DNA of 64,000 nt, taken from IMG/VR virus record IMGVR_UViG_3300021962_009794. One strand, 5' to 3'. The notes beneath the pieces are model-generated. The model did no database searches and was not told the DNA's origin. It saw only the letters and a program-made list of their open reading frames with translations. The translations under genes were made by a program, and so were the position numbers. This document shows positions 118 to 62,816 of the stretch, in pieces. Every line of letters begins with the position of its first letter. Positions within the stretch are counted from its first letter, which is position 1. Source of the DNA: a virus. Its lineage: Duplodnaviria; Heunggongvirae; Uroviricota; Caudoviricetes.

Positions 118-372
118 ATGAAGCATATCAAATTATTCGAGAATTTTTCAGCTAAAAAATTTACTGACGCTGAATTAGAGAAAATAAAATCCGATGTTGT
201 AAGATTATCCCAACCCGGCTTTTTCGATCGTTGGGAACTACCTGCATATTTGGCAGAGGTAAGCGATAATGACCCTGAAACCGAGGAATATCTAGTTAAT
301 CTATTAAAGGACAAGGGTGTTGATTTTACCGGAACAGATTATGAAGATCCGATCTATTTTAAAAGAAGATAA
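118..372 (+). CDS. hypothetical protein with MKHIKLFENF N-terminal motif (candidate capsid-internal protein)
   Basis: 84-aa ORF; N-terminus matches the motif shared by 11 ORFs here; followed by a terminator. Confidence 0.75.
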   Translation: MKHIKLFENFSAKKFTDAELEKIKSDVVRLSQPGFFDRWELPAYLAEVSDNDPETEEYLVNLLKDKGVDFTGTDYEDPIYFKRR

Positions 373-394
373 GAATAAGAAATAATTTCAAAAT

Positions 395-428
395 AAAGCC
401 GGGCCAAAAAGCTCGGCTTTATTTTTTT
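395..428 (+). terminator. intrinsic terminator
   Basis: AAAGCCGGGC-CAAAAA-GCTCGGCTTT hairpin followed by a T-tract. Confidence 0.75.
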
Positions 429-453
429 ATACCGGATCCTTTCCTTATATTTG
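422..453 (+). promoter_or_regulatory. host sigma-A-type promoter (T-tract/CCG/N11/TATATTTG)
   Basis: TATATTTG at 446-453 fits the Bacteroidota -7 box; CCG lies 11 nt upstream as in the other copies. Confidence 0.7.
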
Positions 454-468
454 CAAAAAAAAGAAGAA

Positions 469-1281
469 ATGCCAGAAGGACCGGAAGTAAGAAGAATGGC
501 CGAGGGATTGGCCAAAAGAATAGTTGGTAAGGACCTAACTGAGGCTGAAATACTCGGGGGTAAGTGGTTAAAGAAAGAACCTACAGGAATTGATATTATT
601 AGGCAGAGCCTATCAAAAGGGCCTCTCCGAGTGGAATGGGTTAAGGTTAAAGGCAAATTCATCTACGCCAAAATGGGGAATTTGTTTATGTGGAACACTC
701 TAGGCATGAGCGGAGGCTGGAGAGATCTTAGAGGAAAGCATTCGCATTTCGTTCTTAGACTTTCTGATTCTTCTGAGGTTTTCTTTGAGGATGTAAGAAG
801 ATTCGGTAATATCTCTTTCCACTCAGATCCCGACGAGATCCAAAAGAAGTTGAATGGAGCAGGTCCGGATATGTTGAATAGCGAGGTGTCCTTTTCTGAG
901 TTTTATGCTAGACTATCAAAATCACCAAACAAGAATATCTGTAAAGCTATCATGGATCAGAAAGTGATCTCTGGGGTAGGTAACTACATAAAATCAGAAG
1001 CACTGTACAGAGCTGGCATTTCACCCCACTTAAAGATCTCCGAAATCCCACAGGATAGGATGGAGAAGCTTTGCGAGTGGATAAAAACGATAATCCGGAC
1101 TTCTTACGAGCAAGGTGGAGCGACACTAGCCACATACACAGACATGGACAATAACCACGGGGACTTTGTATTCTCTTTCCATGTTTATCGCAAGGATAAA
1201 GATCCTCTGGGTAACACAGTTCTTCACGAGGTTACAGAGGACGGTAGGATGACACATTGGGTTTCTGAAATGCAAAGCTAA
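469..1281 (+). CDS. nei: Fpg/Nei-family DNA glycosylase/AP lyase, zincless-finger type
   Basis: Starts MPEGPEV (catalytic Pro2/Glu3); H2TH motif SGVGNYIKSEALY; C-terminus VYRKDKDPLGN...GRMTHWVSEMQ has no Cys4 zinc finger. True start is ATG 469, not the TTG at 451. Confidence 0.92.
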   Translation: MPEGPEVRRMAEGLAKRIVGKDLTEAEILGGKWLKKEPTGIDIIRQSLSKGPLRVEWVKVKGKFIYAKMGNLFMWNTLGMSGGWRDLRGKHSHFVLRLSDSSEVFFEDVRRFGNISFHSDPDEIQKKLNGAGPDMLNSEVSFSEFYARLSKSPNKNICKAIMDQKVISGVGNYIKSEALYRAGISPHLKISEIPQDRMEKLCEWIKTIIRTSYEQGGATLATYTDMDNNHGDFVFSFHVYRKDKDPLGNTVLHEVTEDGRMTHWVSEMQS

Positions 1282-1670
1282 TGGCGGAAAGGGAAATTCT
1301 AATACAGGAGGATTACTTAGACAACCCATGGAGAATGATGGTTTGTTGCATCCTGCTAAATCAAACAAACAACAAGCAAGTAAGACCGATTTTAAGCTCC
1401 GTATTTGAGCTTATTCCTGATCCTATATCTACTATTGGGTGTGATCCCGAAAAGCTAGCAGCGGTCATAAAAACCACCGGATTTCAGAACGTAAAAGCAT
1501 CCCGGATAATAAAGCTTAGCCAAAAATGGGTTGATGGATTTGAACATGTGAGCCAGTTACCAGGGATTGGTAAATACGGAGTAGATTCATGGGATATTTT
1601 TATAGAGGGTAATCTATCTGTTACTCCAACTGATAAAAAATTAATAGGTTACTTGGAATATATAAAATAA
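1281..1670 (+). CDS. MBD4-like HhH-GPD mismatch DNA glycosylase
   Basis: LIQEDYLDNPWRMMVCCILLNQT...LPGIGKYGVDSWDIF parallels the MBD4 catalytic domain (LIQE..DPW...LN.T; GIGKYGNDSY.IF). Confidence 0.85.
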   Translation: MAEREILIQEDYLDNPWRMMVCCILLNQTNNKQVRPILSSVFELIPDPISTIGCDPEKLAAVIKTTGFQNVKASRIIKLSQKWVDGFEHVSQLPGIGKYGVDSWDIFIEGNLSVTPTDKKLIGYLEYIK

Positions 1671-1689
1671 AAAAATTAAATCATCAACT

Positions 1690-2052
1690 ATGAAACGAAT
1701 AAAATTATACGAAGTTTTCTTTTACGGACAGGATGGAAATACTGGGTCTATGGATTCGAGCGTTCCGAATCGCGGAAAATCTGGTATGGTTTATCTTGAT
1801 ATGCTTCCTAAAGGTCTTAAAAATGAACTGACAAGACCTGTTAAAGATATGCTTATGAATTCTAATGCGTCAGATTGGGATGCCCTGGATTACATCATGC
1901 CAAAAATAGAAAAATTGATGGCTAAGTCGGGACTTCAGTGGAATAGATTTCCGGGGATGATGAGTATTTCGGGTATAAAAACTATGGATCAATTTATAAA
2001 CTGGTTGGAAAAAGGATATTGCCAGGCATTAGAAGATGCTTATTTCTCCTAA
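1690..2052 (+). CDS. hypothetical protein with MKRIKLYEVF N-terminal motif
   Basis: 120-aa ORF; AATATATA upstream. Confidence 0.7.
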   Translation: MKRIKLYEVFFYGQDGNTGSMDSSVPNRGKSGMVYLDMLPKGLKNELTRPVKDMLMNSNASDWDALDYIMPKIEKLMAKSGLQWNRFPGMMSISGIKTMDQFINWLEKGYCQALEDAYFS

Positions 2053-2103
2053 ACTATAGATCCCTGTATTTAAGCTTATACCGGATTCTCTACCTACTGT
2101 TTA

Positions 2104-2208
2104 TTAGTAGACCTTCCAATTAGGGATAATGACTATGGATTTCATGTTACGCTTTTTGGCCGGCATAACATACTCGACAAATTCCTCAAATAGCTTTATG
2201 TGTTTCAA
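2104..2208 (-). CDS. 34-aa micro-protein MKHIKLFEEFVEYVMPAKKRNMKSIVIIPNWKVY (not in the ORF track)
   Basis: TTG start overlaps the TGA stop of the M28 gene (TTGA); first 10 aa nearly identical to ORF 118; fills an otherwise empty gap. Confidence 0.7.
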   Translation of the reverse strand: MKHIKLFEEFVEYVMPAKKRNMKSIVIIPNWKVY

Positions 2209-3203
2209 GCTTCATCTATTATTTTCAAACAAACTTCGTTAACGAATTCCTCCATGTCTTTTGGATCGATTGTGTCCACGGAGTCTGTCATTTTGTGACA
2301 GTTGAATAGCATTTTAAAGTTTAAATATTCCCCATCCTTATTTATAACCGGGCTTTTTTCTTCAGTTACTGGAAGGGGATTGATCACAGTGCTATTTATC
2401 CCGTATTTCTTGAAGATTACCGAGTCATTGAAAGGAACATTTACAATTGGGCATTCAAATCTGTTTGCAATCCAATCTGTTAAAGGTGTTCCCATTGCAC
2501 CCACGAAGAAGCTTTTTCCGCCCTTACCTGTTAGTTCCAAATTAAGAACCCATTTGCATTTAAAATCTCCGCCTTTAATTCTTTCTGCTAATCTATTAGA
2601 ACCTATACCTCCAAATTCCTCGCCATCCAATATAACGACGTTTACATCTGGTCTTAGCTTCTTAATCATTAAAGCATTTATAACTGAACATGAATTGTCA
2701 TTAGCATTATCAGAATCCTTGTTTACTATATCGTGGTGAGCCACAACAAATTTATCAGATGATCCGGGAAGTACTATATTGAAGTAGTTATTAACGCTTC
2801 TCTTTATTTCACCAGCAATTGCTTTTAACTTTTCCGAATACTCGTCTTCCAATTGGTAGTATTGTTCCTCGTGGAAATCAATAGCTTCCTCGTCGTTTTC
2901 TAATCCCGATTCTTCAAAGTCAGCATCTAGATCTTCCACCTTCTGGCGAAACTCTTTATAAAGATCAAGTGCTTGTTTTCTTTTTTCTGGTGATAACGTA
3001 TCTACGATATAACGGAAATCCCTCATCGTCATATCGTCACCAGCATTAGATTTGTCTTGTTGGAAAGTATCTAACTCGTATTTAAGACCCATTTGATCAC
3101 AAAGATCAAGTAGGAAATTTACCCTTGGTGTAGGATTCTCCCCGTTTCTAAAACAGTTTCCTAAATTTTTGACTTTGCAAAAGTCGTATATTTTTGAGTA
3201 CAT
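2205..3203 (-). CDS. M28-family metallopeptidase with acidic helical insertion
   Basis: VVAHHD, NANDNSCSV, LDGEEFGGIGS, LNLE and final CH match M28 zinc-ligand motifs. Confidence 0.75.
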   Translation of the reverse strand: MYSKIYDFCKVKNLGNCFRNGENPTPRVNFLLDLCDQMGLKYELDTFQQDKSNAGDDMTMRDFRYIVDTLSPEKRKQALDLYKEFRQKVEDLDADFEESGLENDEEAIDFHEEQYYQLEDEYSEKLKAIAGEIKRSVNNYFNIVLPGSSDKFVVAHHDIVNKDSDNANDNSCSVINALMIKKLRPDVNVVILDGEEFGGIGSNRLAERIKGGDFKCKWVLNLELTGKGGKSFFVGAMGTPLTDWIANRFECPIVNVPFNDSVIFKKYGINSTVINPLPVTEEKSPVINKDGEYLNFKMLFNCHKMTDSVDTIDPKDMEEFVNEVCLKIIDEA

Positions 3204-3214
3204 ATGTTTTCTTA

Positions 3215-3246
3215 CAAATTTAGGGTATTATTACGGATAAAAAAAT
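3215..3246 (-). promoter_or_regulatory. host sigma-A-type promoter (T-tract/CCG/N11/TAAATTTG)
   Basis: Reverse strand reads TTTTTTTATCCG-N11-TAAATTTG just upstream of the M28 gene. Confidence 0.7.
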
Positions 3247-3249
3247 TAA

Positions 3250-3552
3250 TTATCTTTTTTTAGAGGATCTTTCCTTAAAAGAATCCTTTATGTAGTTGGT
3301 TATCTGAGCCCCTGATTTTTTACCCCCGTCTAGGAACTTATTGAATTTCTCAGATTTACCTTCTTCATCCAGAAAATCGTGAAAATATGATGCCTCGAAC
3401 ATGGCATCAACAACCTCTGGCAGTGGTTGGTTCTGTGTTTTATAGTTTCTAGAATTGACTCTAATCTCCGAATTCTGTCCAGGAACGTCGATACTACCAG
3501 GAGAATCGAGCCATTCATTTAGGAAATCTGAAATATTTTTTAAATTTTTCAT
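3250..3552 (-). CDS. hypothetical protein with MKNLKNISDFLNE N-terminal motif
   Basis: 100-aa ORF; GATATATA on the minus strand at 3558-3565. Confidence 0.7.
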   Translation of the reverse strand: MKNLKNISDFLNEWLDSPGSIDVPGQNSEIRVNSRNYKTQNQPLPEVVDAMFEASYFHDFLDEEGKSEKFNKFLDGGKKSGAQITNYIKDSFKERSSKKR

Positions 3553-3637
3553 CTTTTTATATATCCTAGGCGGAAACTTAAGTTAGGATCGGAATAAAAA
3601 GATGGTACCAGAATAAAACATACGTAAATAAAAAATA

Positions 3638-5038
3638 ATGATCGTAGACATTGAGAACAGGGGAGAATATCTTAAAGTATCACATTTCACTGAAGAAGGC
3701 GACTTAGCTTTCTTGGATGTTCCGATTCCTGAAGAAGAAAGATTTGTTTGGGAAAAGTGCAGTCCTAGTAATTCAGCAAAAGATAAAGAATGGAAAACTT
3801 GGACTGGTGACCCGGTCAAAAAACTCAAAACTCAGAAGTACGACAAATATAGGATGGCTCAGATTCTAATCGAGGCAGATCCTGAATTAACAGCTCCTCT
3901 ATGGTCTTACCAAACTCCTAAGAAATACTTCGTCGATATCGAGGTTGAGATCACAGAAGATATGGCGGCAGCATTAGACACAGAAAATGCTAAAAACCGT
4001 GTTTTATCAATAGGAATTGCAACAGACAAATGCAAGTTGATCATTTTAGGTCTGGACCCATTAACTCCCGAGCAACAAGCCAACATTTACAAGAAGACCA
4101 ACGAGTACTTTAAAAAGACTGGGGATGAATGGTCATTCAAATATAAGCAGTTTGAAAGCGAGTACGATATGATGTACACTTTCTTCAAAGAGCTTGGTCC
4201 TAAAATGCCAGTTATAACGGGTTGGAACTGGCTAGGATATGACTGGCCGTATCTTATTAACAGAGCAAAGAAGCTGGGGATTGATCCTAAGATCATCTCT
4301 CCTGGCGGATATCTTATAGGCAAACAGCAACTTCCTGTCCACTTACTAATGTTTGACTACTTGGAAATTTACAAGAAGTGGGACCGAGTTATCAAGATCA
4401 AAGAAAGCAATAGATTGGATTATGTAGCTGATAAAGCTATCGGGTTAAAAAAGATTGAATACAACGGAACACTCCGAGATCTATACCAATCCAATTTTGA
4501 AGATTTCATTTACTATAACGCAGTTGACTGCGCTTTAGTTCATTATATCGACCAGAAGCTTAAGACAATGCAAACGTTCTTCAAAATAGCTATGATTAGC
4601 GGTGTGGAGATAAACAGATGCCTTTCCCCCGTTTGGTCAACTGAAATCATGATGCTCAGAAAGTTCTTAGAACGCAAACAGCTATTTGTTGTGGAAAACA
4701 GAGAGGAAGTACACGTTAAGTTTGCTGGAGGTTACGTTAAAGAACCTATCACCGGATTACACGAATGGGTAGCCTGCTATGACTTTGCATCTCTATACCC
4801 AAACACGATGGTTCAGTGGAACATCTCGCCGGAAGCGTACAGGGGTAAAAATCCAGTAAATCCCAAGGAAGATTGGGTCAGAACAGCTTCAGGAGCATGC
4901 TTTGCTTCGGATGAAGAAAATCCTATACTTAAGATAATTATTAAGGATTTGTATGCTAAACGTCGTAAGACAAAAGACAAAATGTTAGAGCTGGAATATG
5001 AAATTGACCAGCTGAAAAAAAAGATCGGTAAAAATTAA
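3638..5038 (+). CDS. polB: family-B DNA polymerase, N-terminal subunit (3'-5' exonuclease + palm motif A + first fingers helix)
   Basis: ExoI FVDIEVE, ExoII GWNWLGYDWPY, ExoIII YNAVD; FAGGYVKEP...YDFASLYPN; ends in the fingers region with no motif B or C. Confidence 0.93.
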   Translation: MIVDIENRGEYLKVSHFTEEGDLAFLDVPIPEEERFVWEKCSPSNSAKDKEWKTWTGDPVKKLKTQKYDKYRMAQILIEADPELTAPLWSYQTPKKYFVDIEVEITEDMAAALDTENAKNRVLSIGIATDKCKLIILGLDPLTPEQQANIYKKTNEYFKKTGDEWSFKYKQFESEYDMMYTFFKELGPKMPVITGWNWLGYDWPYLINRAKKLGIDPKIISPGGYLIGKQQLPVHLLMFDYLEIYKKWDRVIKIKESNRLDYVADKAIGLKKIEYNGTLRDLYQSNFEDFIYYNAVDCALVHYIDQKLKTMQTFFKIAMISGVEINRCLSPVWSTEIMMLRKFLERKQLFVVENREEVHVKFAGGYVKEPITGLHEWVACYDFASLYPNTMVQWNISPEAYRGKNPVNPKEDWVRTASGACFASDEENPILKIIIKDLYAKRRKTKDKMLELEYEIDQLKKKIGKN

Positions 5039-5139
5039 AAATAACTCCCGTCTGGCCCCCAGTCCCCGGAAATCGATCGATATATAAAAAACCCGGTGGT
5101 GGAGACCTAGACGAAAAAACCTAGTCAAAAATCACAAAT

Positions 5140-5619
5140 ATGGCAAATACAGACAACCAATGCAAAGATCTTCTCGTTGAGAATGACTACGTAAAGTCCA
5201 CGCATCATCTGGGCACTTTAATGACCCTTCAAAAGAACACTCAAGAGAAAGTGTATGGGTACGATTTCGCAAACCTCACTCTAGGGGAAATCAAAGACTT
5301 CTGGCTTTGGAACACTAGAGCAATCGAGGATGAAATCTCCGAAGCATACGACGCTCTAGGAGGAGTTTCTAATAATGGGGAAACCTCAATCGGCAACGCA
5401 GTTTGGAAACCTTGGAAAAGTAATCACAAGAAAGCTTACACAATGAAGATATCCGACTTGTCTCCTGAAGACGTGAAAGAACTTAAGATGGAACTAGTGG
5501 ATATCCAGCACTTCGTATTTAATATGATGATTTCCGTTGGTATGACTGCAGACGAACTTTACAACTTCTATCTCTCTAAAAACAAAGAGAATATTAGAAG
5601 ACAAGAAAACAATTATTAA
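5140..5619 (+). CDS. all-alpha NTP pyrophosphatase (dUTPase_2 / T4 gp56 dCTPase-dUTPase-like)
   Basis: AIEDEISEAYDALGG...WKPWK...KMELVDIQHFVFN are the ExxE, WKxWK and ExxD motifs. Confidence 0.8.
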   Translation: MANTDNQCKDLLVENDYVKSTHHLGTLMTLQKNTQEKVYGYDFANLTLGEIKDFWLWNTRAIEDEISEAYDALGGVSNNGETSIGNAVWKPWKSNHKKAYTMKISDLSPEDVKELKMELVDIQHFVFNMMISVGMTADELYNFYLSKNKENIRRQENNY

Positions 5620-9131: not shown

Positions 9132-9758
9132 ATGGAAAGAATAAAAACTTTTGAAGATTTTACTTTAAATGAAAGAGAGCTTCCGGATAATCAGGGTAAA
9201 ATCCTGGTTATCCTCGGAGCACCTGGATCAGGTAAAGGAACTTTGTCTAAGGAGTTAAAGAAAAATTACAACTTCATACATTTGTCAACTGGTGATATTA
9301 TCAGAAATTCAGACGACGAGGATGTTAAAAAGATTATTGAAGCTGGTAATTTATTACCCGACAATATGATAATCAAAATTCTTAGAAGAGAATTGAAAAA
9401 AGTAGATCTTAGTTCTAATGTTATACTTGATGGATTTCCGCGAACCATAAAACAGGCTAAGAGACTCGACTCCCTTTTAGGCCGAATGGGATTGGGATTA
9501 AATCATGCTCTTTATTTGGATCTACCTGATAAGGTTGCCAAGGAAAGAATAAAAAAGAGAGCTATGGAAGAGGATAGAAAGGATGATGCAAGTGATGAAG
9601 TAGTTGAAAAAAGATTCAAGGAATATCACGAGAAAACATTTCCACTACTAGACTTTTACCAGAAAAGCAGAAAATTAATCAAGCTAGAGGCTGACAAGGG
9701 AAAGGATAAGGTCCTAGAACAAGTTAAGGAAAGACTTGGTTTAAAATCTAAAAAGTAA
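9132..9758 (+). CDS. adk: adenylate/NMP kinase (short LID) with N-terminal MERIKTFEDFTLNE extension
   Basis: GAPGSGKGT P-loop, HLSTGDIIR, LDGFPRT. Likely start is ATG 9132 (the 9096 start overlaps nrdA). Confidence 0.9.
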   Translation: MERIKTFEDFTLNERELPDNQGKILVILGAPGSGKGTLSKELKKNYNFIHLSTGDIIRNSDDEDVKKIIEAGNLLPDNMIIKILRRELKKVDLSSNVILDGFPRTIKQAKRLDSLLGRMGLGLNHALYLDLPDKVAKERIKKRAMEEDRKDDASDEVVEKRFKEYHEKTFPLLDFYQKSRKLIKLEADKGKDKVLEQVKERLGLKSKK

Positions 9759-11715: not shown

Positions 11716-11742
11716 GATATATAAAGAAAAAATTCTGAATTA

Positions 11743-12282
11743 ATGAAGCATTTATTAGAATACGAATCTTACGAAAACCCTATTACAGAGGGGGCAATTC
11801 CTGTTTATGACGAGGACGAGTTCGTAAAAAACACTAAGTCCAAGCCAGATATGGAGATAAAATGGACACAAATTCCTGCTGTTGTTGAGGGTCTTTTAAA
11901 TAAAGTTGAATCTGGAGAACTTCAAACAGTAACTGTTGTAGCAGATATACCAACACAAGGTAAAAATGCTCCTGCATACGTTAGGGATCTAATGACAAAG
12001 GAGAGAGAAAGAATGGCTCAAAGACAGCAAGCTATCCACGGTAGCAGAATCGAAAGAGCTGACAGACCGGAAGAGGAAGAGTACAGAGACGAAATTAACG
12101 TTTTCGTTGACTCTGAGTACACTATCGAAGGTGTTGTTAGAGAAGTTGGTAAAGATTATCTAATCGGTATCCCTGCTTCTTTTGTAAACAAGGTTAAAAG
12201 AGAACCAAGTTTAAAAGAGTACTACACGGTTAAAATCGCACCACAGCAAATAATAGAAATTTACTATATTAAAGCTAAGTAA
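11743..12282 (+). CDS. hypothetical protein with MKHLLEYESY N-terminal motif
   Basis: 179-aa ORF; GATATATA at 11716-11723; followed by a terminator. Confidence 0.75.
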   Translation: MKHLLEYESYENPITEGAIPVYDEDEFVKNTKSKPDMEIKWTQIPAVVEGLLNKVESGELQTVTVVADIPTQGKNAPAYVRDLMTKERERMAQRQQAIHGSRIERADRPEEEEYRDEINVFVDSEYTIEGVVREVGKDYLIGIPASFVNKVKREPSLKEYYTVKIAPQQIIEIYYIKAK

Positions 12283-21856: not shown

Positions 21857-23314
21857 ATGGCCGATAAAGTATTAGATTTTTGGTCCTTTTTGAATGAGTC
21901 AAAGGGGGAAACCACTAAGGTTATAGTTCTAACTGGGAATACGAAGGGAAGTAAGACTGCTAAATCCTTTGCAGAACAGTGTGAAAAAAGGGGAGCAGAA
22001 TGCTATGTCGTAGATGTAAACCAAACAGTAATGGAAAAGGTTTACAACGGACACCTCTTAAAAACAGGAGAAGAGGGAATCTTGATAGATCCAAATTCAA
22101 CAGTAATCGTGCCTAGAAGAGGGGTTATCGAAAACTCTTACACTAAGCAGCTATTAGAACAACTGGAGGCTAATAGATATTTTACAGTAAACACATTAGA
22201 ATCTATCGAGGTTTGTGAAAATAAATACACAACTTCTCAATATTTAGAGGAAGCGGGATTACCCGTACCTAAGTATGCTCTGGTACCAAACGAGGATTTC
22301 TTAGATCAATCTTTAGAACAAATAGGCGGCAAATTCCCTATTATAATGAAGCTTTTATCGGGTACACAGGGTATAGGAGTTTCTATAGTGGATTCATACG
22401 CATCTCTAAAATCTGTTTACCAAACGATCAGAAAACTTGACGAAACAAGCGAAATCTTGGTTCAAGAAAAAATTGACTCCAACTTCGATCTAAGAATCCA
22501 AGTTATTCTTAAAAACTTCGACCCTATAAATCCTTCAGTAGACAACTGCATAATCTTAGGCTCTATGAAAAGGGAAGCTGTTGAGAAGGACTTTAGAACA
22601 AACTACTCATTAGGTGGTTCGGTTTCTAACTACGAAATACCGGAGGATCTAGTTGAAATAGCTTGTAAGGCAGCTAACGCAGTGGGATGTCACTGGTGTG
22701 GAGTTGATATAATGATTGACAAAAAATCTAAGAAGCCTTATATTTTGGAGGTAAACTCTTCTCCAGGAACGGAAGGTATATCTAAGGCAATAGGAAAACC
22801 AATTGTAAATGACGTTTTAGATTACCTTTTAGATAAAGCTAATTGGAGCTACTCAAACCTAGAAATAGGATATCTAGAACAAATCACAGTACCAGGTATT
22901 GGAAATATGATAGCTAAATTTGACACTGGAAACGGTGCAAAATCTTGTACTATCCATGCAGATGAAATAGAGGAAAGAGGTAAGAAGCTTATCTGGTCAG
23001 TGGGAGGAAAAAAATTCGTAAATGACATCATAGGATATTCCGATGCTGAGGTTGGTAGGGATACCCACACTAGACCAATCATACAGACAAATCTTGAATT
23101 TAATGGTATCCTAGTACCTGATGTTAAAGTTTCACCAGTCGATAGAACCGAAAAGAGCACGCCTTTCTTAGCTAATAGAGCTTTTATGAAGAGATTAGGT
23201 CTTATAGTTAATCCAAACAAGGCATTCGTTGTTACTAACGAGCCTGAGGATAAATATAGCCCGGGCAAAGCAAAAGGTGAACAACACGCTGGAATCTACT
23301 TTGAAAATAAATAA
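21857..23314 (+). CDS. rimK: RimK-family ATP-grasp ligase fused to a RimB-like (DTG) protease
   Basis: PIIMKLLSGTQGIGV, VQEKI, DLRIQV, FRTNYSLGG, GVDI, LEVNSSPG; C-terminal AKFDTGN...RP...DR...FLANR. ATG start 21857; GATATATA at 21827-21834. Confidence 0.9.
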   Translation: MADKVLDFWSFLNESKGETTKVIVLTGNTKGSKTAKSFAEQCEKRGAECYVVDVNQTVMEKVYNGHLLKTGEEGILIDPNSTVIVPRRGVIENSYTKQLLEQLEANRYFTVNTLESIEVCENKYTTSQYLEEAGLPVPKYALVPNEDFLDQSLEQIGGKFPIIMKLLSGTQGIGVSIVDSYASLKSVYQTIRKLDETSEILVQEKIDSNFDLRIQVILKNFDPINPSVDNCIILGSMKREAVEKDFRTNYSLGGSVSNYEIPEDLVEIACKAANAVGCHWCGVDIMIDKKSKKPYILEVNSSPGTEGISKAIGKPIVNDVLDYLLDKANWSYSNLEIGYLEQITVPGIGNMIAKFDTGNGAKSCTIHADEIEERGKKLIWSVGGKKFVNDIIGYSDAEVGRDTHTRPIIQTNLEFNGILVPDVKVSPVDRTEKSTPFLANRAFMKRLGLIVNPNKAFVVTNEPEDKYSPGKAKGEQHAGIYFENK

Positions 23315-23823: not shown

Positions 23824-23852
23824 TTTAGTATAGTTTAGATGATATATATTAT

Positions 23853-24170
23853 ATGAAAAAAATACTGGAATTCTCCGACTATTTAGACGATTTAGATTTA
23901 AGCCAGGAAGAGCAGGCGGAGATCAAGAATTGGATAAAGAAATACGAGAAGTATTTTAATTTCCACGATAGCGGTAACTTTATGGATTCTGTGGATCAAA
24001 TAACAACCGACGCTTTAAATCAGCTTGGCATAGACAAATCTAAAAAAGACGAGGTTCAAAGCTATATAGAAAGCCTATACGATTTATCTGACGGTATATC
24101 TGTTATTATGGCACCAGAGCCAGAGATCAATTATAATGGTATTGATCAGGTTCAAAGATTCCAATATTAA
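23853..24170 (+). CDS. hypothetical protein with MKKILEFSDY N-terminal motif
   Basis: 105-aa ORF; GATATATA at 23841-23848. Confidence 0.7.
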   Translation: MKKILEFSDYLDDLDLSQEEQAEIKNWIKKYEKYFNFHDSGNFMDSVDQITTDALNQLGIDKSKKDEVQSYIESLYDLSDGISVIMAPEPEINYNGIDQVQRFQY

Positions 24171-40405: not shown

Positions 40406-40443
40406 TCTGAATAGATATATACATAAACATAAAATACATAAAA

Positions 40444-40830
40444 ATGGAAAGAATTGTATCATTTGACGACTTCAGAAAAAAAGCTAGCGAAATAGCAGAA
40501 GACGATCACATGGAAGGAGGAGATGAAAAACAGCACTACATGTTTTTCGCAAACCTAACTTCTATCAAGCACTACATAGACGAAATCCTCAAAATGGATC
40601 CAAAAGAAGTTGATAATCATCTTAGAAATGGTCACGATTGGGCTGCTGATCATATTGCTACGTCTAAAGACGATATTCAAGAAGTTGCTGATTGGATCAG
40701 AAACGAAATGGAGGGTCACAGTAAAGAAGAACCAGGCGAAGAGATGGGAATGATAGAGCCCGAAAATGTTGAGGTTGAAGTTGAAGACGACGAGAAGGAA
40801 GAGGGCGACGAAGACGAGGACGAAGAATAA
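40444..40830 (+). CDS. acidic hypothetical protein with MERIVSFDDF N-terminal motif
   Basis: 128-aa ORF; GATATATA at 40414-40421. Confidence 0.75.
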   Translation: MERIVSFDDFRKKASEIAEDDHMEGGDEKQHYMFFANLTSIKHYIDEILKMDPKEVDNHLRNGHDWAADHIATSKDDIQEVADWIRNEMEGHSKEEPGEEMGMIEPENVEVEVEDDEKEEGDEDEDEE

Positions 40831-53956: not shown

Positions 53957-53979
53957 TACTGTCAAGGGATATATAATCC

Positions 53980-55365
53980 ATGGCAAATCTGATACACAAC
54001 TTTGATTCGTTTGTAAGATTAAATGAATCGAAAAGCGACGGTACGAGCATCATAATTGGTGACTCATGTACCCCTATAATCTTTAAAAGATCTAAGACAC
54101 TTACCATGTTGGGTAACACTGGATCAGAAAAAAGCTTATGGAAAAGCGGAATGGGTGTTAAATGGTTAAAGGATGCTGTTTCAAAATATCAGGTTACGCC
54201 AAGTGTTAAAGACGTTGTGATAAACATTGGAACTAACGGAGCTTTTAATCCCAAAGACGATATTAAAGGTCTTATGACCGAATTAAGAAGAGTTTTCCCG
54301 CAGGCTAAATTCTGCGTGATTCAAGGGTCTTGGGGCTGGGGATATAACGTATCGATAACAGAGGATAAGGTTAAAAAATACTACGATATATTCAGAGCAG
54401 AAGGTGTTACTGTGATAGAACCACCAATCGGCAAGGTAAAAGATCCACACACAAATTTGCCAGTTTATGATGTGATAGCTAAGGCAATCGATGGATGGAT
54501 AACAAATCAATCCGGATACATCCAAACCACAGATTTAAGTAAAGGAAATTCAGCAACCAGTCAAATCATTTCTAGACCAGGGGATCCATACAGATACAAG
54601 GTGGAAAATGACCATTGGTTAGCCAAGAAGGACAGTCAAGCAAGATGGTATGAAATCACGGGAGCAGATTTTAAACCACCTTATCAGGTTTCTGTTGACA
54701 TACTTGACAAGGAAAATCCTAACATGAGATCTAAGAGTGCTCCAAAAAGAAGTGGAGCGGCTTCAGTTGATAACGGAACCAATGGAACTTCTGTTGTAAC
54801 GTCAACAGATTCAGAGGAGGATACAAATCTACCCCCACTATTAATAGGAAATCTTCCGATTAAACTTACCGGAAGCTATAAAGTTCCAAGAGTGATTCTA
54901 ATGAAAGCCGATGCATTGCATGCTTTCGACAGAAGAAAACTTGATGGATTTGGGGGTTACATGTTAAGAGGAGGACCTATTCCTAATAGATGGAAATCGA
55001 ACGTTAAGCTCGATCAGGGAAGAGGAATCAACCAAGTTCTAGAAGAATTGATCTTATCAGGAATTAAACCAGACGTAACAGAAATCAAGATAAAAGTTAA
55101 CGATGATTACAGCGTTAATTGGGAAGCAACAATAGATAAAAGCACAGACGGTAAAGCTTATGCTGGGGTTTCTACCAGAGGATCAGCCGGGGATAACGCT
55201 GACGAAAGAGCTATCGAACAGCTACCAAAAATGAAATCAAAAAAACCAAATGCTTCCGATTGGAAAATGGTTTTAGATTTTAACATAGAAAAACCAATAA
55301 AGATCAGACAATATTTCTATAAGTATACTGACTCTAGCGGATTAAAAGACCTTACGGGAAAATAA
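53980..55365 (+). CDS. multidomain protein: N-terminal motif + SGNH-like esterase + two unknown domains
   Basis: MANLIHNFDSFVRLNE; IIGDS (block I), INIGTNG (block III), DPH (block V); GATATATA at 53968-53975. Confidence 0.65.
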   Translation: MANLIHNFDSFVRLNESKSDGTSIIIGDSCTPIIFKRSKTLTMLGNTGSEKSLWKSGMGVKWLKDAVSKYQVTPSVKDVVINIGTNGAFNPKDDIKGLMTELRRVFPQAKFCVIQGSWGWGYNVSITEDKVKKYYDIFRAEGVTVIEPPIGKVKDPHTNLPVYDVIAKAIDGWITNQSGYIQTTDLSKGNSATSQIISRPGDPYRYKVENDHWLAKKDSQARWYEITGADFKPPYQVSVDILDKENPNMRSKSAPKRSGAASVDNGTNGTSVVTSTDSEEDTNLPPLLIGNLPIKLTGSYKVPRVILMKADALHAFDRRKLDGFGGYMLRGGPIPNRWKSNVKLDQGRGINQVLEELILSGIKPDVTEIKIKVNDDYSVNWEATIDKSTDGKAYAGVSTRGSAGDNADERAIEQLPKMKSKKPNASDWKMVLDFNIEKPIKIRQYFYKYTDSSGLKDLTGK

Positions 55366-55726: not shown

Positions 55727-56137
55727 TTAAGCTACTGTATATTCTATCTTCTTTTGCTCTACAACTGTCATACTTTCGCCGTTTCTATCAATGCGAATGT
55801 ATTCACAAGAAATAAGGCCAAACTCGTCTAGATGTTCTAAAACCTCTTCTGCTGTGAACTCTGAGCATGAGTAGATATCAAACTGAAACATTGCAGGGGA
55901 ATTGCGATCCCAAACGTGGATAGCTGCGTGTGAAGTTGCTAAGGTAACAGTTCCAGTGATTCCCTCGTTTCCTGGTTCATCAACGTAAATGGATGAGGGT
56001 CCGGCGACAACAACCATTCTCACTTTTTCGACTAGTCTTTTAAGCCAGTCATTTAAAAATTCTTCCTCTTTAGGAGGTAAGCTCACGTATCCTTTAACAA
56101 TTAAATGTAGGTGGTTAGGCAAGAATGGTTCTTTCAT
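55727..56137 (-). CDS. speD: pyruvoyl-dependent decarboxylase, AdoMetDC/SpeD-like
   Basis: GITGTVTLATSHAAIHVW...FDIYSC..F matches the SpeD core but has TS instead of ES at the cleavage site. Likely ATG start at 56137. Confidence 0.75.
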   Translation of the reverse strand: MKEPFLPNHLHLIVKGYVSLPPKEEEFLNDWLKRLVEKVRMVVVAGPSSIYVDEPGNEGITGTVTLATSHAAIHVWDRNSPAMFQFDIYSCSEFTAEEVLEHLDEFGLISCEYIRIDRNGESMTVVEQKKIEYTVA

Positions 56138-56168
56138 ATATTCTATTTTTTTTATCGTATATATTAAA

Positions 56169-57494
56169 TTAGAACCAATTTTTAGGATTCCATTTAGATT
56201 TACTAGCTTCATTAGCAGCTCTATTAAGTTCGTCCTGTGCAGCTCTTGCCTGTCTGTCTAGTTCTTCTTGTGCAGCTCTTGCTTGTCTGTCTAGTTCTCT
56301 TTGTGCTGCTTCCGCAGCTTCTTGAGTTTCTCTAGCTTTTCTGTCAAATTCTCTCTGAGCAGCTTCTGCAGCTTCCTTAGCTTGTCTATCCAATTCTCTC
56401 TGAGCAGCTTCCGCAGCTTCTTGAGTTTCTCTAGCTTTTCTGTCAAATTCTCTCTGAGCAGCTTCTGCAGCTTCTTTAGCCTCTTGGGCTTGTTTATCTA
56501 ATTCTCTCTGAGCAGCTTCTGCTTGTTCTTTTGCAATTCTCTCAGCTTCACCATTTGCAATTGCATTACCTAAATCGATAGCTGGGTTTAAATCAAGATT
56601 AACATCAATATCAGCATCAAGACCAACTAATAAAGCTGCCTCTCCGCTAATTCCGATACTAACTTCTCCATCATTATATGTTGCATGGCCTTCACCTTCT
56701 GCACCAACTTGTAATCCTACACTAGCTCCTACTTCTCCACTTGCTTCTGCACCTCCGATAGGAGTATCTACACCAACGCTTCCCCCCGCTTCGACACCTA
56801 CGCTAGCTCCTGCCATTGCACCACCTGAAGCTGATACACCATGTTCTCCTACTGAAGCATCAGCATGAACACCAGCGTGAGCTTCTGCATAAGCACCTGC
56901 GTGTCCTTCTGCATTTGCTTCCACTGCTACTTCTCCTATTGGGGTATCGATACCAGCTTTGCCGTTTGCTTCTCCGCTTGCTTCTACTTCCACTCTAGCT
57001 TCAACGCTTGCTCCGACTCCGATTTTAGCATCCGAACCATCCCATCCTGCTTCAGCGTGAGCTTCTGCACTTGCATCTGCACTTGCATGAGCTTCTGCAT
57101 GAGCATCTACTTCTGCACCTATACTTACCCCGCCACCTAAATCTTGGTTAGCGTGTGCTTCCGCGTTTGCTTCGGCGTTAACTTCAGCATGTACATTAGC
57201 TTCTGCCGATGCGGAAGCCATTGTTCCGTCGATACCTGCTTCTGCATGTGCGCTTGCACTTGCACTTGCATCGTAAGATGCGTTTGCACTTGCACCTACT
57301 TCTTCATTTCCAGTTTGAGCAGAAACGCTATCATTAACTTCTACTGAAGCACTAGCACCTGCGCTAACCTCTTCTGTATTATTAACTGGTTTAGCAGCCT
57401 CCCATGATGCCCATGGGTTAACTGGTTTAGGAGTATTATCCATCTCATGATGAGCATTCCATGGATTGTGATGATTTTTGTTTTCTTTTGACAT
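56169..57494 (-). CDS. Ala/Gly/Glu-rich alternating-pattern protein with C-terminal coiled-coil repeats
   Basis: 441 aa; long (A-x)n strands separated by turns DTPIG/WDGSD/YNDGE; QRE(L/F)DR repeats. Confidence 0.8.
   Translation of the reverse strand: MSKENKNHHNPWNAHHEMDNTPKPVNPWASWEAAKPVNNTEEVSAGASASVEVNDSVSAQTGNEEVGASANASYDASASASAHAEAGIDGTMASASAEANVHAEVNAEANAEAHANQDLGGGVSIGAEVDAHAEAHASADASAEAHAEAGWDGSDAKIGVGASVEARVEVEASGEANGKAGIDTPIGEVAVEANAEGHAGAYAEAHAGVHADASVGEHGVSASGGAMAGASVGVEAGGSVGVDTPIGGAEASGEVGASVGLQVGAEGEGHATYNDGEVSIGISGEAALLVGLDADIDVNLDLNPAIDLGNAIANGEAERIAKEQAEAAQRELDKQAQEAKEAAEAAQREFDRKARETQEAAEAAQRELDRQAKEAAEAAQREFDRKARETQEAAEAAQRELDRQARAAQEELDRQARAAQDELNRAANEASKSKWNPKNWF
56225..56525 (-). 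repeat. coding tandem repeats (11/15/18-aa units)
   Basis: About 68 nt identical at 56308-56375 and 56407-56474 (99-nt period), plus a 33-nt repeat near 56240-56300. Confidence 0.85.
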
Positions 57495-57837: not shown

Positions 57838-58689
57838 CTAGAATCCGTTAGTTGTATTATTGTAGAAAACCAAACCCGTTACATTTGTTGTTTTTGTTAT
57901 AGTTGATGTTGAGAAACTAAATGTCATTACATCTCCACCGCTTAATTCCCCAAATTGTATTCTGATTGGATAATAGGTACCAGCAGTTAATCCAATAGAC
58001 CCAGATTTTTCTAAGGTTCCATGAAGACCTCCATTGTTAACTGTAGAGTTTCCTGTGGTAAAACCTGTCTGTGCATTTGAACCTATCCACACATAGGACG
58101 CATCATCAGATGATGTGAAAAAAGTATATGTTTCGGAAGTTGTTGGCTTAAAATACCCTAACCATTGACAACTGAAATTCTCACCGTCATCTTGAGCTGG
58201 TTCAAATATAGAAGTGGTTTGTACTGAAGTTGCAGGATTACCCCCGACTGACGCAGGGGTTGCAGTTGCAAAGAAACTAACGTTATCTGCAAAATAGCCA
58301 GTATAAGTCGTCTTATATAAACCAGCAATAAGTGGATCTGTATATGATGCCCAATACCCATTCGCGCTCAGCCAAGATAAAGCAGTTCCAGCATTAACAA
58401 ATCCCTGATTAAATAGACCATTACACAACGAAAGAAAGCTTGCTTCCGTTTTTAATGCACTTCTCCAGAATCCTATTGTTGGCGCAGGTACGACATACGA
58501 GTTTTGCCCAGCTGTTCTAGCTCCAGATGTGTGACATATAACATAACCAGGATCCTCATCCGGACCTTTCCACCACGTGAGTCCTGCACCATAATCAGCA
58601 GCGGTTGCACCTGCTGCTATATAGCCAACCTGTGTTGTTCCGGTTACTCCTGTTCCTGAGTTGTATGCGAATGTTCTAACTGTTGCCAA
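57838..58689 (-). CDS. PA14-domain carbohydrate-binding protein
   Basis: NFSCQWLGYFKP..SETYTFFTSSDDASYVWIG...NNGGLHG...YYPIRIQFGE; TTG start; GATATATA at 58709-58716 on the minus strand. Confidence 0.85.
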   Translation of the reverse strand: MATVRTFAYNSGTGVTGTTQVGYIAAGATAADYGAGLTWWKGPDEDPGYVICHTSGARTAGQNSYVVPAPTIGFWRSALKTEASFLSLCNGLFNQGFVNAGTALSWLSANGYWASYTDPLIAGLYKTTYTGYFADNVSFFATATPASVGGNPATSVQTTSIFEPAQDDGENFSCQWLGYFKPTTSETYTFFTSSDDASYVWIGSNAQTGFTTGNSTVNNGGLHGTLEKSGSIGLTAGTYYPIRIQFGELSGGDVMTFSFSTSTITKTTNVTGLVFYNNTTNGF

Positions 58690-58769: not shown

Positions 58770-59588
58770 TTATGCTAAAAGTGAATAGAATTCTTTGAAG
58801 TGCTTAATTCTGTCTTCTAATCCGATAGTTCCCCCGTTTACTCTTTTCGTAACTGCGGTAACTGTAGCAACGTCTGCTCCTCTATCACAAATAGCCCAAA
58901 GGTTATTATTATTGAAGAAGAAAGCTGCCGACATTAAAGGGTATTTAGTAGCAACTAAATCAGGGTTTGCTAAGATGTCATCATCAACAAATTTATCGAA
59001 AGAAGAGTAGTTTGATTTACCCGTTAATTGGATATATCCTCTACCTCTGAATTTGAATCCTTCTCCCGATGCTTCGTCTCCGTTGCCCATTCTAGAAGAA
59101 TAAACTCTGTTAGCAATCTTCTGTGGATTTCTTGCATAAGATTCGTTTAGTGCTCCTGGGAAATATTTAGGGAAGATCTTTTTAAGACCATCTGCAGAGT
59201 AATTCAAGTTTTCAGATACTGCTTTGAAGTTTCCTGACTCGTGTCCACACTGAGCTAAAAAGTGTGCTAATCTTAATGTGTTAGTGATGTTGAATTTAGC
59301 TGCTGTATCTGGGATTTGTGCAATAACTGAATCCGGGATGTGTCCTCTTAAAGCATCTAGTTTAAAAGCTGAAGGTGGAATAGCTACTGGTGCTGCTACT
59401 GGAGCAGAGCCAAACATCTTAGCCCAAGTACCATCTCCTACAACTCCATCTGCTGTTAGACCGTTGGCTGCTTGCCATGCTTTTACTTTTGCTTCTGTAC
59501 CTGGTCCAAAAGCACCATCGGCTGTTAAGCCTAATTTTTCTTGGAGCTTTTTTACATCGTCTCCTTTAGATCCATTCTTTAGTAACAT
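58770..59588 (-). CDS. modular endolysin: PG-binding-1 domain + GH19
   Basis: LKNGSKGDDVKKLQ...ADGAFGPGT..ADGVVG; AHFLAQCGHES, FRGRGYIQLTGKSNY, TKRVNGG. ATG start at 59588; GATATATA at 59609-59616. Confidence 0.95.
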   Translation of the reverse strand: MLLKNGSKGDDVKKLQEKLGLTADGAFGPGTEAKVKAWQAANGLTADGVVGDGTWAKMFGSAPVAAPVAIPPSAFKLDALRGHIPDSVIAQIPDTAAKFNITNTLRLAHFLAQCGHESGNFKAVSENLNYSADGLKKIFPKYFPGALNESYARNPQKIANRVYSSRMGNGDEASGEGFKFRGRGYIQLTGKSNYSSFDKFVDDDILANPDLVATKYPLMSAAFFFNNNNLWAICDRGADVATVTAVTKRVNGGTIGLEDRIKHFKEFYSLLA

Positions 59589-59699
59589 AGTTTTTTTGGT
59601 TTTTGTTTTATATATCCTAGTTTTCATTTTTTTTGACCGGGAGCTCACTTTACTTTTGGAACAAATTAGGGCGGGATCCCATATAAACTAATAAACACC

Positions 59700-60862: not shown

Positions 60863-60879
60863 GATTTTTTTCATATAAA

Positions 60880-60911
60880 TTTTTTTTACCCGGGTTGTGG
60901 TCATATATTTG
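60880..60911 (+). promoter_or_regulatory. host sigma-A-type promoter (T-tract/CCG/N11/TATATTTG)
   Basis: Fixed-spacing motif copy. Confidence 0.7.
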
Positions 60912-60948
60912 AGATGTAATTAAAATACAAACCAAAATAAAAAAAGTT

Positions 60949-61497
60949 ATGAAAAAGTTAATCGCAATCGCAGCAATCGTTATCGCATCAGTAACCACTG
61001 CACAGGTAAAAGCTCAAACCCCAATAGAGAAAATTTGCAATTCTATAGATACTTTCATGAAAGCTCAGCATCCGGAGTATGCTAAGATTGAGAGATATAA
61101 AGTATCAGAAATCAAGCTAAATAAAGTGGTCACTAAATCAGAAGATGGTAAAATAGATACATTATTACATCCTGAGGCTGTCTTCGAAAAGGGAAAAGAA
61201 CCACTTGGTGTTAATGTGGAGGGACCATTCGTTACTTTAGAAGAATACTATAATTATAAATTTTCTTCTTATCTTATGCCTTACGTAGCCCCCGTAGACT
61301 ATCATAATAATTCAGATAAACTGTATCTAAAGTTTGTGGGAGACATCGATAGCGAAAAGAATAAAGATTATGAATATGATTTATACAGCTTCTCAGTAAT
61401 CGAAAAGGACGGAGCTAAATACTTTATTCTAATTCAAGATTATCAGGTTCGTCCGACATTGGAATCAGTTAGGAAAGAGATGTTAGAGCAGAACTAA
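60949..61497 (+). CDS. secreted/periplasmic hypothetical protein
   Basis: Signal peptide MKKLIAIAAIVIASVTTAQVKAQ. Confidence 0.7.
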   Translation: MKKLIAIAAIVIASVTTAQVKAQTPIEKICNSIDTFMKAQHPEYAKIERYKVSEIKLNKVVTKSEDGKIDTLLHPEAVFEKGKEPLGVNVEGPFVTLEEYYNYKFSSYLMPYVAPVDYHNNSDKLYLKFVGDIDSEKNKDYEYDLYSFSVIEKDGAKYFILIQDYQVRPTLESVRKEMLEQN

Positions 61498-61511
61498 TAA
61501 ATTCAACAAAC

Positions 61512-61549
61512 AAAAAAAAGATCAAAGTTTAAACTTTGATCTTTTTTTT
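61512..61549. terminator. bidirectional intrinsic terminator
   Basis: A8-GATCAAAGTT-TA-AACTTTGATC-T8 between convergent genes. Confidence 0.85.
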
Positions 61550-61565
61550 GTATTATGTTTTTCTA

Positions 61566-62816
61566 TTATGATACCATTGAAGAGTTTACTGTAATGTAAG
61601 CTACCTTGATAGTAACTTTCTGTGCTCTCTTCTTAACGGTGTTAATAAATGTAACAGTTTCGTCTTCTTTTCCTGTCTGCTTAACTAAGGATGTACCATC
61701 TACGTTCATAGTGATCTTTCTGAAAGTCTTTCTGGTTTTCTCGTCAGTTTCTGGAGATTTAGGTTGGATATCTCCTTCCTCGTCTGCAGTGATGGTGGTA
61801 CCAGGGAAAGTAGGCTTAAGAAATTCAGCTACTGCTGCAGCTCTCAATTTGCAAAGTTCTTTATTTCTTTCTGGAGTACCTTCTTGAGAAGCTCCTCCTC
61901 TAATCGAAATTGATTTAGCTGTGGTTACGTTAGATAGTGCCTGCATAATTGAGTTTTTTCCCTCTTCCGTTAACTCTGCAGTGTTTACTTTGAAAAGAGG
62001 AAGGTCTTCCTGAACAACGATTGGCTTTAATTTTTCAGTAACAGTTGCTTTAGGACGAACGTAAGTTTCTACCTCCTTACTTTCATAAGCTTGTCCAGTG
62101 TTTTCTATTTTGGATGGATAATACAAAGCATATATTGCGTGTAGGTTTGTCTGAGGATTGGTAGCTGTTGAATCTTTCAGATTTTTGTTTTTCCAGGTTT
62201 CCTTGGTAACCGGATCTGCAAAATTAGGTGTAGATATCTGAGAATTTTTAACAGGGTCAGAAAATTTCCATTTCTTTAAATCCAGTGTTCCCTCTATAGT
62301 AACTGGCAAATACTGTCCAAGAAGACCAGATCCCTTTACAAAATCTCCATCCTCGTCTAGTTCGAATCTTTTCTTTTCCTTATTTACATCTGGTATTTTT
62401 CCAACTGATTGGGGCTTTAAATTCTCCTTATTTGCTTTAGTTAAAAACTGGGCAAGACCTACTCTATCGCCCTTTTGGGTTTTAACCGCTCCCCCTCTTA
62501 AGTTGTCGTATTCGAATTGCTGTACATCTACATCCACAGAGTCTATCTGTGTTACGTCAGGGATACTTAGTTTTCCTAATACTACTCCTATCTGACTTAA
62601 ATCATCGGCAGTAAAATTAATACCCGCTTGAGATGCTAAGCTTTCTATTTCAGATAGTGCTTTTTTACCCGCAGCATCCATCCCGTTACTTCCTAATGTG
62701 GTTTGTAGGTCAGAAAGATCTGTTAATTTTACCGCTTCGTAGATTGCGTCTCCGTAAACAAACTTGACGAAATCGCCAAAGTTTTCAAATACTGGTCTGT
62801 TGTTTTCCATATTCAT
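61566..62816 (-). CDS. protein with C-terminal OmpA-like peptidoglycan-binding domain, no signal peptide
   Basis: LFKVNTAELT...IRGGASQEG..ERNKELCKLRAAAVAEFL...RKITM; GATATATA at 62843-62850 on the minus strand. Confidence 0.75.
   Translation of the reverse strand: MNMENNRPVFENFGDFVKFVYGDAIYEAVKLTDLSDLQTTLGSNGMDAAGKKALSEIESLASQAGINFTADDLSQIGVVLGKLSIPDVTQIDSVDVDVQQFEYDNLRGGAVKTQKGDRVGLAQFLTKANKENLKPQSVGKIPDVNKEKKRFELDEDGDFVKGSGLLGQYLPVTIEGTLDLKKWKFSDPVKNSQISTPNFADPVTKETWKNKNLKDSTATNPQTNLHAIYALYYPSKIENTGQAYESKEVETYVRPKATVTEKLKPIVVQEDLPLFKVNTAELTEEGKNSIMQALSNVTTAKSISIRGGASQEGTPERNKELCKLRAAAVAEFLKPTFPGTTITADEEGDIQPKSPETDEKTRKTFRKITMNVDGTSLVKQTGKEDETVTFINTVKKRAQKVTIKVAYITVNSSMVS

Follow-up and report, generated by a model that had tools for sequence, protein, structure and literature searches.

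An N-terminal peptide resembling the T4 capsid-targeting sequence is shared by unrelated proteins, including enzymes, of an apparent T4-like jumbo phage

In bacteriophage T4, the capsid-targeting sequence (CTS) is carried by the proteins IPI, IPII, IPIII and Alt and is removed by the gp21 prohead protease (PMC9026906, PMC3012670, reviewing Mullaney and Black 1996). Residues 4 and 7 of the CTS are responsible for targeting and residues 8 and 10 for processing, gp21 cuts after L/I-x-E, and it has been suggested that T4-like phages may pack various proteins by means of a CTS (PMC9026906). The phiKZ-like giants (SPN3US, phiKZ, 201phi2-1) possess long ejection-protein propeptides, cut at S/A-x-E by a diverged gp21 homologue (PMC5694885, PMC9026906). 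Our literature search, with most subscription journals outside its reach, found no paper on CTS-like families outside the T-even and phiKZ-like phages. The T4 CTS itself is well known and has already been used to pack foreign proteins into phage particles. T7 gp16 is an internal ejection protein with a transglycosylase domain, and virion-associated peptidoglycan hydrolases exist; such proteins are not known to have a portable address peptide in common. Here we describe a family of proteins with a shared N-terminal peptide (the tag) encoded in a 64,000-nucleotide stretch of DNA (the window), which corresponds to bases 6112-70111 of a 134-kb IMG/VR virus record (IMGVR_UViG_3300021962_009794; CheckV completeness ~48%). 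The tag is probably a cleavable capsid-targeting propeptide, this lineage's version of the T4 CTS, serving both targeting and cleavage. What is added here to the T4 case is the match between the tag and the repeats of a scaffold, a list of cargo domains, the demonstration that the tag is a conserved extension on Adk, RimK and SGNH proteins, and the contrast with an untagged endolysin.

The tag is a predicted amphipathic peptide in which a hydrophobic residue is followed by two aromatic residues three apart and usually then by [LI]-x-E. The preliminary description of this DNA, made from the letters alone, listed eleven tagged N-termini in the window, all of which are indeed present, and pointed to the sequence GATATATA upstream of seven of them; exactly seven starts have this box, at a distance of 4-26 nt (3552-, 11743, 21857, 23853, 40444, 53980 and 62816-). 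The tagged genes of the window are:

118..372, plus strand: 84-aa tagged protein, MKHIKLFENF...; the sole [LIV]-x-E near its start is LFE at residues 6-8; no GATATATA directly upstream
1690..2052, plus strand: 120-aa tagged protein, MKRIKLYEVF...; box AATATATA at 1657-1664
2104..2208, minus strand: 34-aa ORF that opens with TTG and bears a perfect tag, KHIKLFEEF; the start overlaps the stop codon of 2205..3203 (minus strand), and no box lies directly upstream; may be a remnant or a coupled mini-gene
3250..3552, minus strand: 100-aa tagged protein, MKNLKNISDFLNE...; GATATATA at 3558-3565, 5 nt from the start
9132..9758, plus strand: adenylate kinase (Adk) with a 22-residue N-terminal extension, MERIKTFEDFTLNE, followed by RELPDNQG; the start is the ATG at 9132, within a longer TTG-started frame
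11743..12282, plus strand: 179-aa tagged protein, MKHLLEYESYENPITE...; GATATATA at 11716-11723; the orthologue in the relative G001 (see below) keeps the tag
21857..23314, plus strand: RimK-type ATP-grasp ligase; N-terminal extension of 19-20 residues, MADKVLDFWSFLNE...; ~160 further residues at the C-terminus; GATATATA at 21827-21834
23853..24170, plus strand: 105-aa tagged protein, MKKILEFSDY...; GATATATA at 23841-23848, 4 nt from the start
40444..40830, plus strand: 128-aa tagged protein, MERIVSFDDFRKKASEIAE..., with a long-form tag like that of T4 IPI; GATATATA at 40414-40421
53980..55365, plus strand: 461-aa two-module protein consisting of the tag MANLIHNFDSFVRLNE, an SGNH-type esterase domain and a C-terminal module; GATATATA at 53968-53975
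61566..62816, minus strand: 416-aa tagged protein, MNMENNRPVFENFGDFVKFVYGDAIYE..., with a C-terminal OmpA-like peptidoglycan-binding domain; GATATATA at 62843-62850

The six small tagged proteins of the window have no match in Pfam or PHROGs, and the tagged proteins show no similarity to one another beyond the tag. As proposed in the preliminary description, we scanned the whole record and its relatives for the motif. Under a strict pattern (hydrophobic at position 4, F/Y at 7, E/D/N/S at 8, F/Y/W at 10), the tag begins 17 of the 209 called genes of the record, where the frequency at internal positions predicts 0.10 (P ~2e-32), and not one of 800 internal Met residues is followed by it. When residues 2-14 are shuffled within each N-terminus, the mean number of strict matches is 0.12 and the maximum is 2, so that N-terminal composition does not explain the motif; a chance origin of the tag is excluded. 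With looser forms included (position matrix and inspection), the whole record contains ~38 tagged genes, ~10% of its genes. The preliminary description considered that the motif might be equally frequent on cytoplasmic replication genes; this is not the case, the tag being absent from the replication and nucleotide-metabolism genes of the record, with the exception of adk.

Close relatives of the window phage are very frequent in metagenomes, and three near-complete contigs were recovered via the Adk gene, G001 (348.6 kb), G002 (319 kb) and G003 (271 kb), with 70-88% Adk identity to the window over the three and 88% in G001. The tag family is present also in G001 (19 strict matches vs 0.33 expected) and G002 (16 vs 0.34). 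A putative processing site, [LIV]-x-E ending at residues 10-26, is found in 21 of the 32 strict tags of G001 vs 99 of 396 untagged proteins (25%; P 4e-6), with Asn as the most frequent middle residue among these tags; in the window, 7 of the 11 tags carry [LIV]-x-E after the aromatic pair. Seven of the eleven tagged genes of the window have orthologues in G001, at 70-89% identity, and the four leftmost (window 118-3552) have none. Thus, the putative cargo set has a stable and a variable part, and window 118-3552 looks like a variable cargo islet. The products of two neighbouring genes of G001 (156302-157675 and 158513-159751, both plus strand) are alike just in their first 20 residues, NNKPVFESFNEFIKFIY..., which form a sub-variant of the tag; the OmpA-like protein of the window has its orthologue in one of the two, and the other is a paralogue by the tag alone.

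A repeated gene start could also be a feature of the nucleic acid, such as a promoter-proximal or leaderless translation element, or a mobile cassette of promoter and gene start, with the peptide as a by-product. Many tagged starts lie just 4-6 nt after GATATATA, possibly on leaderless mRNAs, and the codons of the tag are A+T-rich. However, the synonymous codons of the conserved residues vary freely (ATT/ATC/ATA/CTA/TTA; TTC/TTT/TAC/TAT), and the DNA upstream of the tags has no conserved register, which implies selection on the peptide rather than on the DNA and largely refutes this explanation. Moreover, the distance to the box is 16-26 nt for about half of the tags, and there are tags, that of adk among them, with no box nearby; the signal vanishes when the N-terminal residues are shuffled; and the peptide is retained in orthologues that are just 66% identical. 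We therefore regard an origin at the level of DNA or mRNA as very improbable.

The tag precedes the folded part of Adk, the RimK-type ligase and the SGNH esterase as a detached stretch of 19-22 residues. In the tagged Adk, the Pfam ADK domain (PF00406) is recognized from residue 27 (136.5 bits, cut-off 26.8; 1e-39), and residue 2 of the solved Adk structures aligns to residue 24. The extension is retained in 120 of the 120 listed orthologues (66-100% identical, on contigs of up to 338 kb), reading from the usual Met; for a few of these, gene callers placed the start further upstream. In a 41-row alignment, F10 and E14 of the extension do not vary and K5 and F7 hardly do, a level of conservation like that of the P-loop; the P-loop itself (GAPGSGKGT) and the arginines are invariant. 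The orthologues display the sites LNE, INE, LLE, IYE, IEE, LDE, ITE, LSE and LFE, in all of which L or I and the E are constant and the residue between them varies freely. Over the Adk and SGNH orthologues together, the middle residue of [LI]-x-E is N, Y, F, S, T, D, E or L, with little or no variation in the aromatic pair and in E.

The protein at 21857 matches Pfam RimK (PF08443) with 115.3 bits against a cut-off of 21 (3e-33), and residues 2-287 of a solved alpha-L-glutamate ligase (7qyr) align to its residues 21-325. A match to Rimk_N likewise begins at residue 21 (21.6 bits, below the cut-off of 26.4). Thus, alignment of Adk and RimK bears out the expectation that the tag is an added extension, with the solved structures aligning from residues 24 and 21, respectively. 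The preliminary description took the protein at 21857 for a polyglutamylase/protease: the RimK-type ligase stands, and the protease half is not supported, the match of the C-terminal ~160 residues to Zn_protease (PF05618) being faint and below the cut-off (13.2 bits vs 27; E 0.085).

The 461-aa protein has no match in Pfam or in PDB sequence searches, and the ESM Atlas gave a weak GDSL lead (0.87). In its orthologues, G27-D28-S29, G84/N86 and H157 (the GDS, GxN and H blocks) are invariant, as are F8, F11 and E16 of the tag. In the structural model, residues 1-18, the tag, are detached, with pLDDT <50, whereas an alpha/beta domain is confidently predicted over most of residues 21-177; the top Foldseek hits of this domain are all SGNH enzymes, including the C-terminal domain of the peptidoglycan O-acetyltransferase OatA (E 3e-5; TM up to 0.65 by target). 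The fold prediction together with the conserved blocks identifies the protein as an SGNH enzyme, as had been proposed, with the SGNH domain at about residues 20-175 or more and the C-terminal module at residues 291-450. The OmpA-like assignment of the 416-aa protein holds as well (PF00691, residues 274-358; 30.9 bits vs a cut-off of 27.2), with an empty PDB sequence search.

In all three near-complete relatives, a Peptidase_S77 protease of the T4 gp21 type is encoded beside a Gp23-type major capsid protein. The capsid protein of G001 aligns end to end with T4 gp23, and its N-terminal region contains the sites LIE and LNE. Its nearest deposited relatives are those of uncultured huge phages, the Prevotella Lak phages (~44% identity) and Tenacibaculum PTm1 and PTm5 (35%), the nearest cultured phages by this protein. 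These relationships suggest that the window phage is a jumbo phage distantly related to T4, whose host probably belongs to the Bacteroidota. In a megablast search of 20 kb against deposited phages, the sole match was a 186-bp thymidylate-synthase stretch of Flavobacterium phages. Directly downstream of the G001 capsid gene are the genes of two tagged proteins and of a third one starting with MLKYREFVINE.

The G001 protease is the N-terminal part of a 654-aa protein (L035:2345-4309:-), the mid-part of which is a scaffold made of 13 tandem 14-residue repeats in perfect period, each with Y-x-x-Y-[LIV]-x-E (consensus about YSEYLAENLDKNIS). The protease-scaffold of G002 (about 276.0-278.1 kb) has 14 such repeats, and the repeats are kept across 39 orthologues. 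The tag and the scaffold repeat share the same seven-residue pattern. With [LIV]-x-E recurring every 14 residues, the scaffold appears to be built for cutting at these sites and looks like a built-in ruler of protease sites, which is strong indirect evidence that the prohead protease of this lineage has T4-like specificity. PTm1 has the same protease-scaffold fusion but different, 16-residue repeats without Y-x-x-Y-L-x-E, and an unbiased all-against-all test found no N-terminal tag family at all in this phage. The absence of both fits the co-occurrence of tag and repeat, as a single case. Prediction of a complex from the protease-scaffold and Adk alignments gave a score of 0.00 (mark 0.32), which speaks neither for nor against binding.

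The likeness to the T4 CTS extends to several features. The tag is short (10-19 residues), is located at the extreme N-terminus and occurs on otherwise unrelated proteins; its aromatic residues at 7 and 10 are three apart, as are Y4 and F7 in T4, and are usually followed by [LI]-x-E. In the T4 record, IPII and IPIII start with MKTYQEFIAE and IPI with MKTFKEF...ITE. Compact tags such as FEDFIKE, FESYIFE, YDEFIGE and FWSFLNE conform to the same aromatic-x-x-aromatic-[LI]-x-E arrangement as YQEFIAE, long-form tags such as MERIVSFDDFRKKASEIAE resemble IPI, and both a protease of the gp21 type and a capsid protein of the gp23 type occur in the lineage. There are differences as well: the tag is one helical turn longer on the N-terminal side, where a further I/L is conserved, three positions ahead of the first aromatic; the tag is found on about a tenth of the genes, compared to a handful in T4; the predicted cargo includes housekeeping-type enzymes (Adk, RimK) and several cell-wall enzymes; and the protease is fused to a scaffold whose repeats share the pattern of the tag. 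Like the window phage, the phiKZ-like phages are giant and, as we propose for the window phage, they have many different head-packed proteins with N-terminal propeptides and a protease that cuts after Glu, but their propeptides are mostly 80-130 residues long, without a single short shared peptide, and the site is S/A-x-E rather than L/I-x-E; by capsid and protease, the window phage is closer to T4 than the phiKZ-like phages. With T7 gp16-type proteins, the tagged set shares cell-wall-active domains (SLT, CHAP, PG-binding, OmpA-like and SGNH), which in the window phage, too, would be carried in the particle for entry.

All the in silico tests capable of refuting a capsid address came out in its favour. 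The preliminary description had proposed such an address, and the part of that proposal that concerns the sequence (motif, add-on, conservation, box, protease and scaffold in relatives, match to T4) stands; scaffold binding, cleavage, packaging and injection are what we infer. In the mechanism that we envisage, the tag would imitate a single repeat unit of the head scaffold of the same phage, and tagged proteins would thereby co-assemble with the scaffolding core of the prohead; the scaffold-fused T4-type protease would then cut after the Glu of [LI]-x-E, and the mature protein, freed inside the head, would leave with the DNA at infection. The window cargo would comprise ten or eleven proteins: Adk, the RimK-type ligase, the SGNH esterase with its cell-wall module, the OmpA-like peptidoglycan binder and six small proteins, or seven if the 34-aa TTG-start ORF, a possible remnant, is counted. 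It is the identity of the tag and repeat patterns that leads us to propose co-assembly of the tag as an extra repeat. Generalized, the tag would be a free-standing copy of a scaffold repeat, such that any protein acquiring it is co-polymerised, released and injected, and different lineages would use different address peptides on interchangeable cargo; we put this forward tentatively, as an idea somewhat less likely to be right than wrong.

The same match between tag and repeat would be expected if tagged proteins entered the prohead core mostly to assist assembly or the scaffold, or to be removed late in infection, and were degraded or stayed in the head without delivery. The T4 core proteins gp22, gp67 and gp68, which have such sites, are fragmented and expelled, and two tagged proteins adjoin the capsid gene of G001, one of them highly charged and rich in lysine and glutamate. 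However, the catalytic motifs are intact in Adk (P-loop, arginines) and in the SGNH protein, which points to selection on enzyme activity; a single [LI]-x-E before the fold is selected, rather than many sites inside; and SLT, CHAP and OmpA domains suit proteins that leave the virion at infection. We consider a core role without delivery unlikely for the family as a whole and possible for some of its members.

Yet another explanation dispenses with the capsid: the tag could be an N-terminal helix recognized by a chaperone or protease of the phage or its host, or a peptide docking to a late complex, which would control the stability or timing of late proteins. The phage has DnaK-like and DnaJ-like genes (judged by eye, from their N-termini), the tag, an amphipathic stretch, stands apart from the folded domains, and Adk is encoded in a nucleotide-metabolism operon. 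A helix of this kind leaves unexplained, however, the enrichment and conservation of [LI]-x-E after the aromatic pair, the match to both the protease-linked scaffold repeats and the mapped T4 CTS, and the bias of the cargo towards cell-wall enzymes, and appears to us an improbable account. A cleavable capsid-targeting propeptide accommodates these observations, yet several others weigh against it. Four of the eleven tags of the window (118, 1690, 2208- and 23853) lack [LIV]-x-E except inside the core motif. If all tagged proteins were cargo, they would amount to ~10% of all genes, far above T4. The adk gene ends the ribonucleotide-reductase operon and adjoins a topoisomerase gene, a position from which one would naturally expect Adk to serve nucleotide supply in the cytoplasm, and the GATATATA nearest to adk is ~4 kb upstream, ahead of the operon. 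The protease gene was not found in the ~48%-complete record that contains the window, and the protease is inferred from the relatives. Finally, PTm1, the nearest cultured relative with the protease-scaffold fusion, lacks the tag family and so offers no virion test of the tag. With regard to the delivery of active Adk and RimK, the arguments for and against seem to us about evenly balanced.

The sequences upstream of the tagged genes suggest that these genes may belong to a late class. An ATATATA box within 60 nt upstream is present in 27 of the 38 genes that carry the tag and in 12 of the 173 that do not (odds ratio 33, P 2e-16), and the tagged genes without it mostly come after a tagged gene that has one. 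In G001, the box also stands ahead of the protease-scaffold gene and of further head-cluster genes; we read GATATATA as a putative late-type promoter. The window contains 12 copies of GATATATA, 10 of which are intergenic, each pointing at a start no more than 53 nt away; the eleventh, within the called endolysin frame, points at an internal Met. The copy at 5079-5086 (plus strand), 53 nt upstream of 5140-5619, stands ahead of the first gene of a run that continues to nrdB, nrdA and adk. The nucleotide-metabolism operon may thus be transcribed in the late mode too, in which case Adk may also be made late. Behind GATATATA, there is a second, distinct shared N-terminus, MAT(V/A)R(T/P)F(A/S)YN(S/T)G..., in the proteins at window 57838-58689 (minus strand) and G000 127673-129358 (minus strand); these proteins, which have no PHROG match, may be fibre-like late proteins.

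The endolysin candidate of the window (58770-59648, minus strand; phrog_181, 6e-69) has the GATATATA box but no tag. The box, at 59609-59616, falls within the frame as called, which starts with GTG; an ATG follows 20 nt further on, at 59588, and this Met (MLLKNGSKGD...) is probably the true start. A boxed but untagged endolysin indicates that the tag is no general mark of late genes or of lysis enzymes. Among the tagged proteins of G001, the recognisable domains are PG_binding_1, SLT, GDPD and CHAP, to which the window adds OmpA-like and SGNH; the tagged proteins of known domain thus appear to be mostly envelope-active. The presence of several predicted wall-active enzymes besides the endolysin fits proteins that would be active from the particle during entry. 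In view of the cell-wall enzymes, we also considered an export signal and rejected it: being acidic and amphipathic, the tag is not hydrophobic, and it is found on Adk and RimK as well. That injected Adk and RimK might act on the host at once, as T4 Alt does, is speculation by analogy.

The two modules of the SGNH protein are also found in other phages, joined to GH24/GH19 lysozymes, Amidase_2, Hydrolase_2 and PG_binding_1. Homologues of the protein at 53980 in other phages (P0190-P0240) bear different conserved N-termini on the same cargo modules (...EEInRIKxxMGLIxE, ...LSESELixlIxxiiSEQ and MKxLIRxILKEE), many of which end in [LI]-x-E and which, judging by their sequences, may be alternative address peptides.

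If the tag indeed loads the head, the proteins that giant T4-like phages of Bacteroidota inject with their DNA could be listed directly from genomes: for phages of 270-350 kb, the injected set, about a tenth of the genes, would include Adk, a RimK-type polyglutamate ligase and cell-wall enzymes. Such a list would be unexpectedly long and would go beyond the anti-restriction proteins of T4 to enzymes of central metabolism and protein modification; injection of an adenylate kinase or a polyglutamylase would represent a novel form of early host take-over. The match between the tag and the scaffold repeat suggests a testable mechanism for the binding of the CTS to the core, for which the T4 sources state just an affinity of the propeptide for the core. 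A portable address of 13-16 residues that is removed after loading would also provide a handle for packing foreign proteins into phage particles.

The window has a G+C content of 37%, and its genes are nearly all on the plus strand as far as ~55.7 kb; it encodes ribonucleotide reductase, adenylate kinase, type II topoisomerase, thymidylate synthase and many small genes. At the switch of orientation to the minus strand, where the G+C content climbs to ~41%, a 161-aa protein (window 55727-56212, minus strand) matches an S-adenosylmethionine decarboxylase PHROG (phrog_3125, 8e-14). Outside the window, a 296-aa protein (G000:C1:103136-103702, plus strand) matches the mid-part of the Gp23 profile (1.7e-11), and a small gp23-like paralogue is found beside the full capsid gene in G001 and G003, too. 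A DnaJ-like gene (window 15729-16766, plus strand; J-domain start MQDYYQILGV...) and a DnaK-like gene (G000 3339-5222, plus strand; start MAKVIGIDLGTTNS...), both judged by eye, suggest that the window phage carries its own Hsp70 system.

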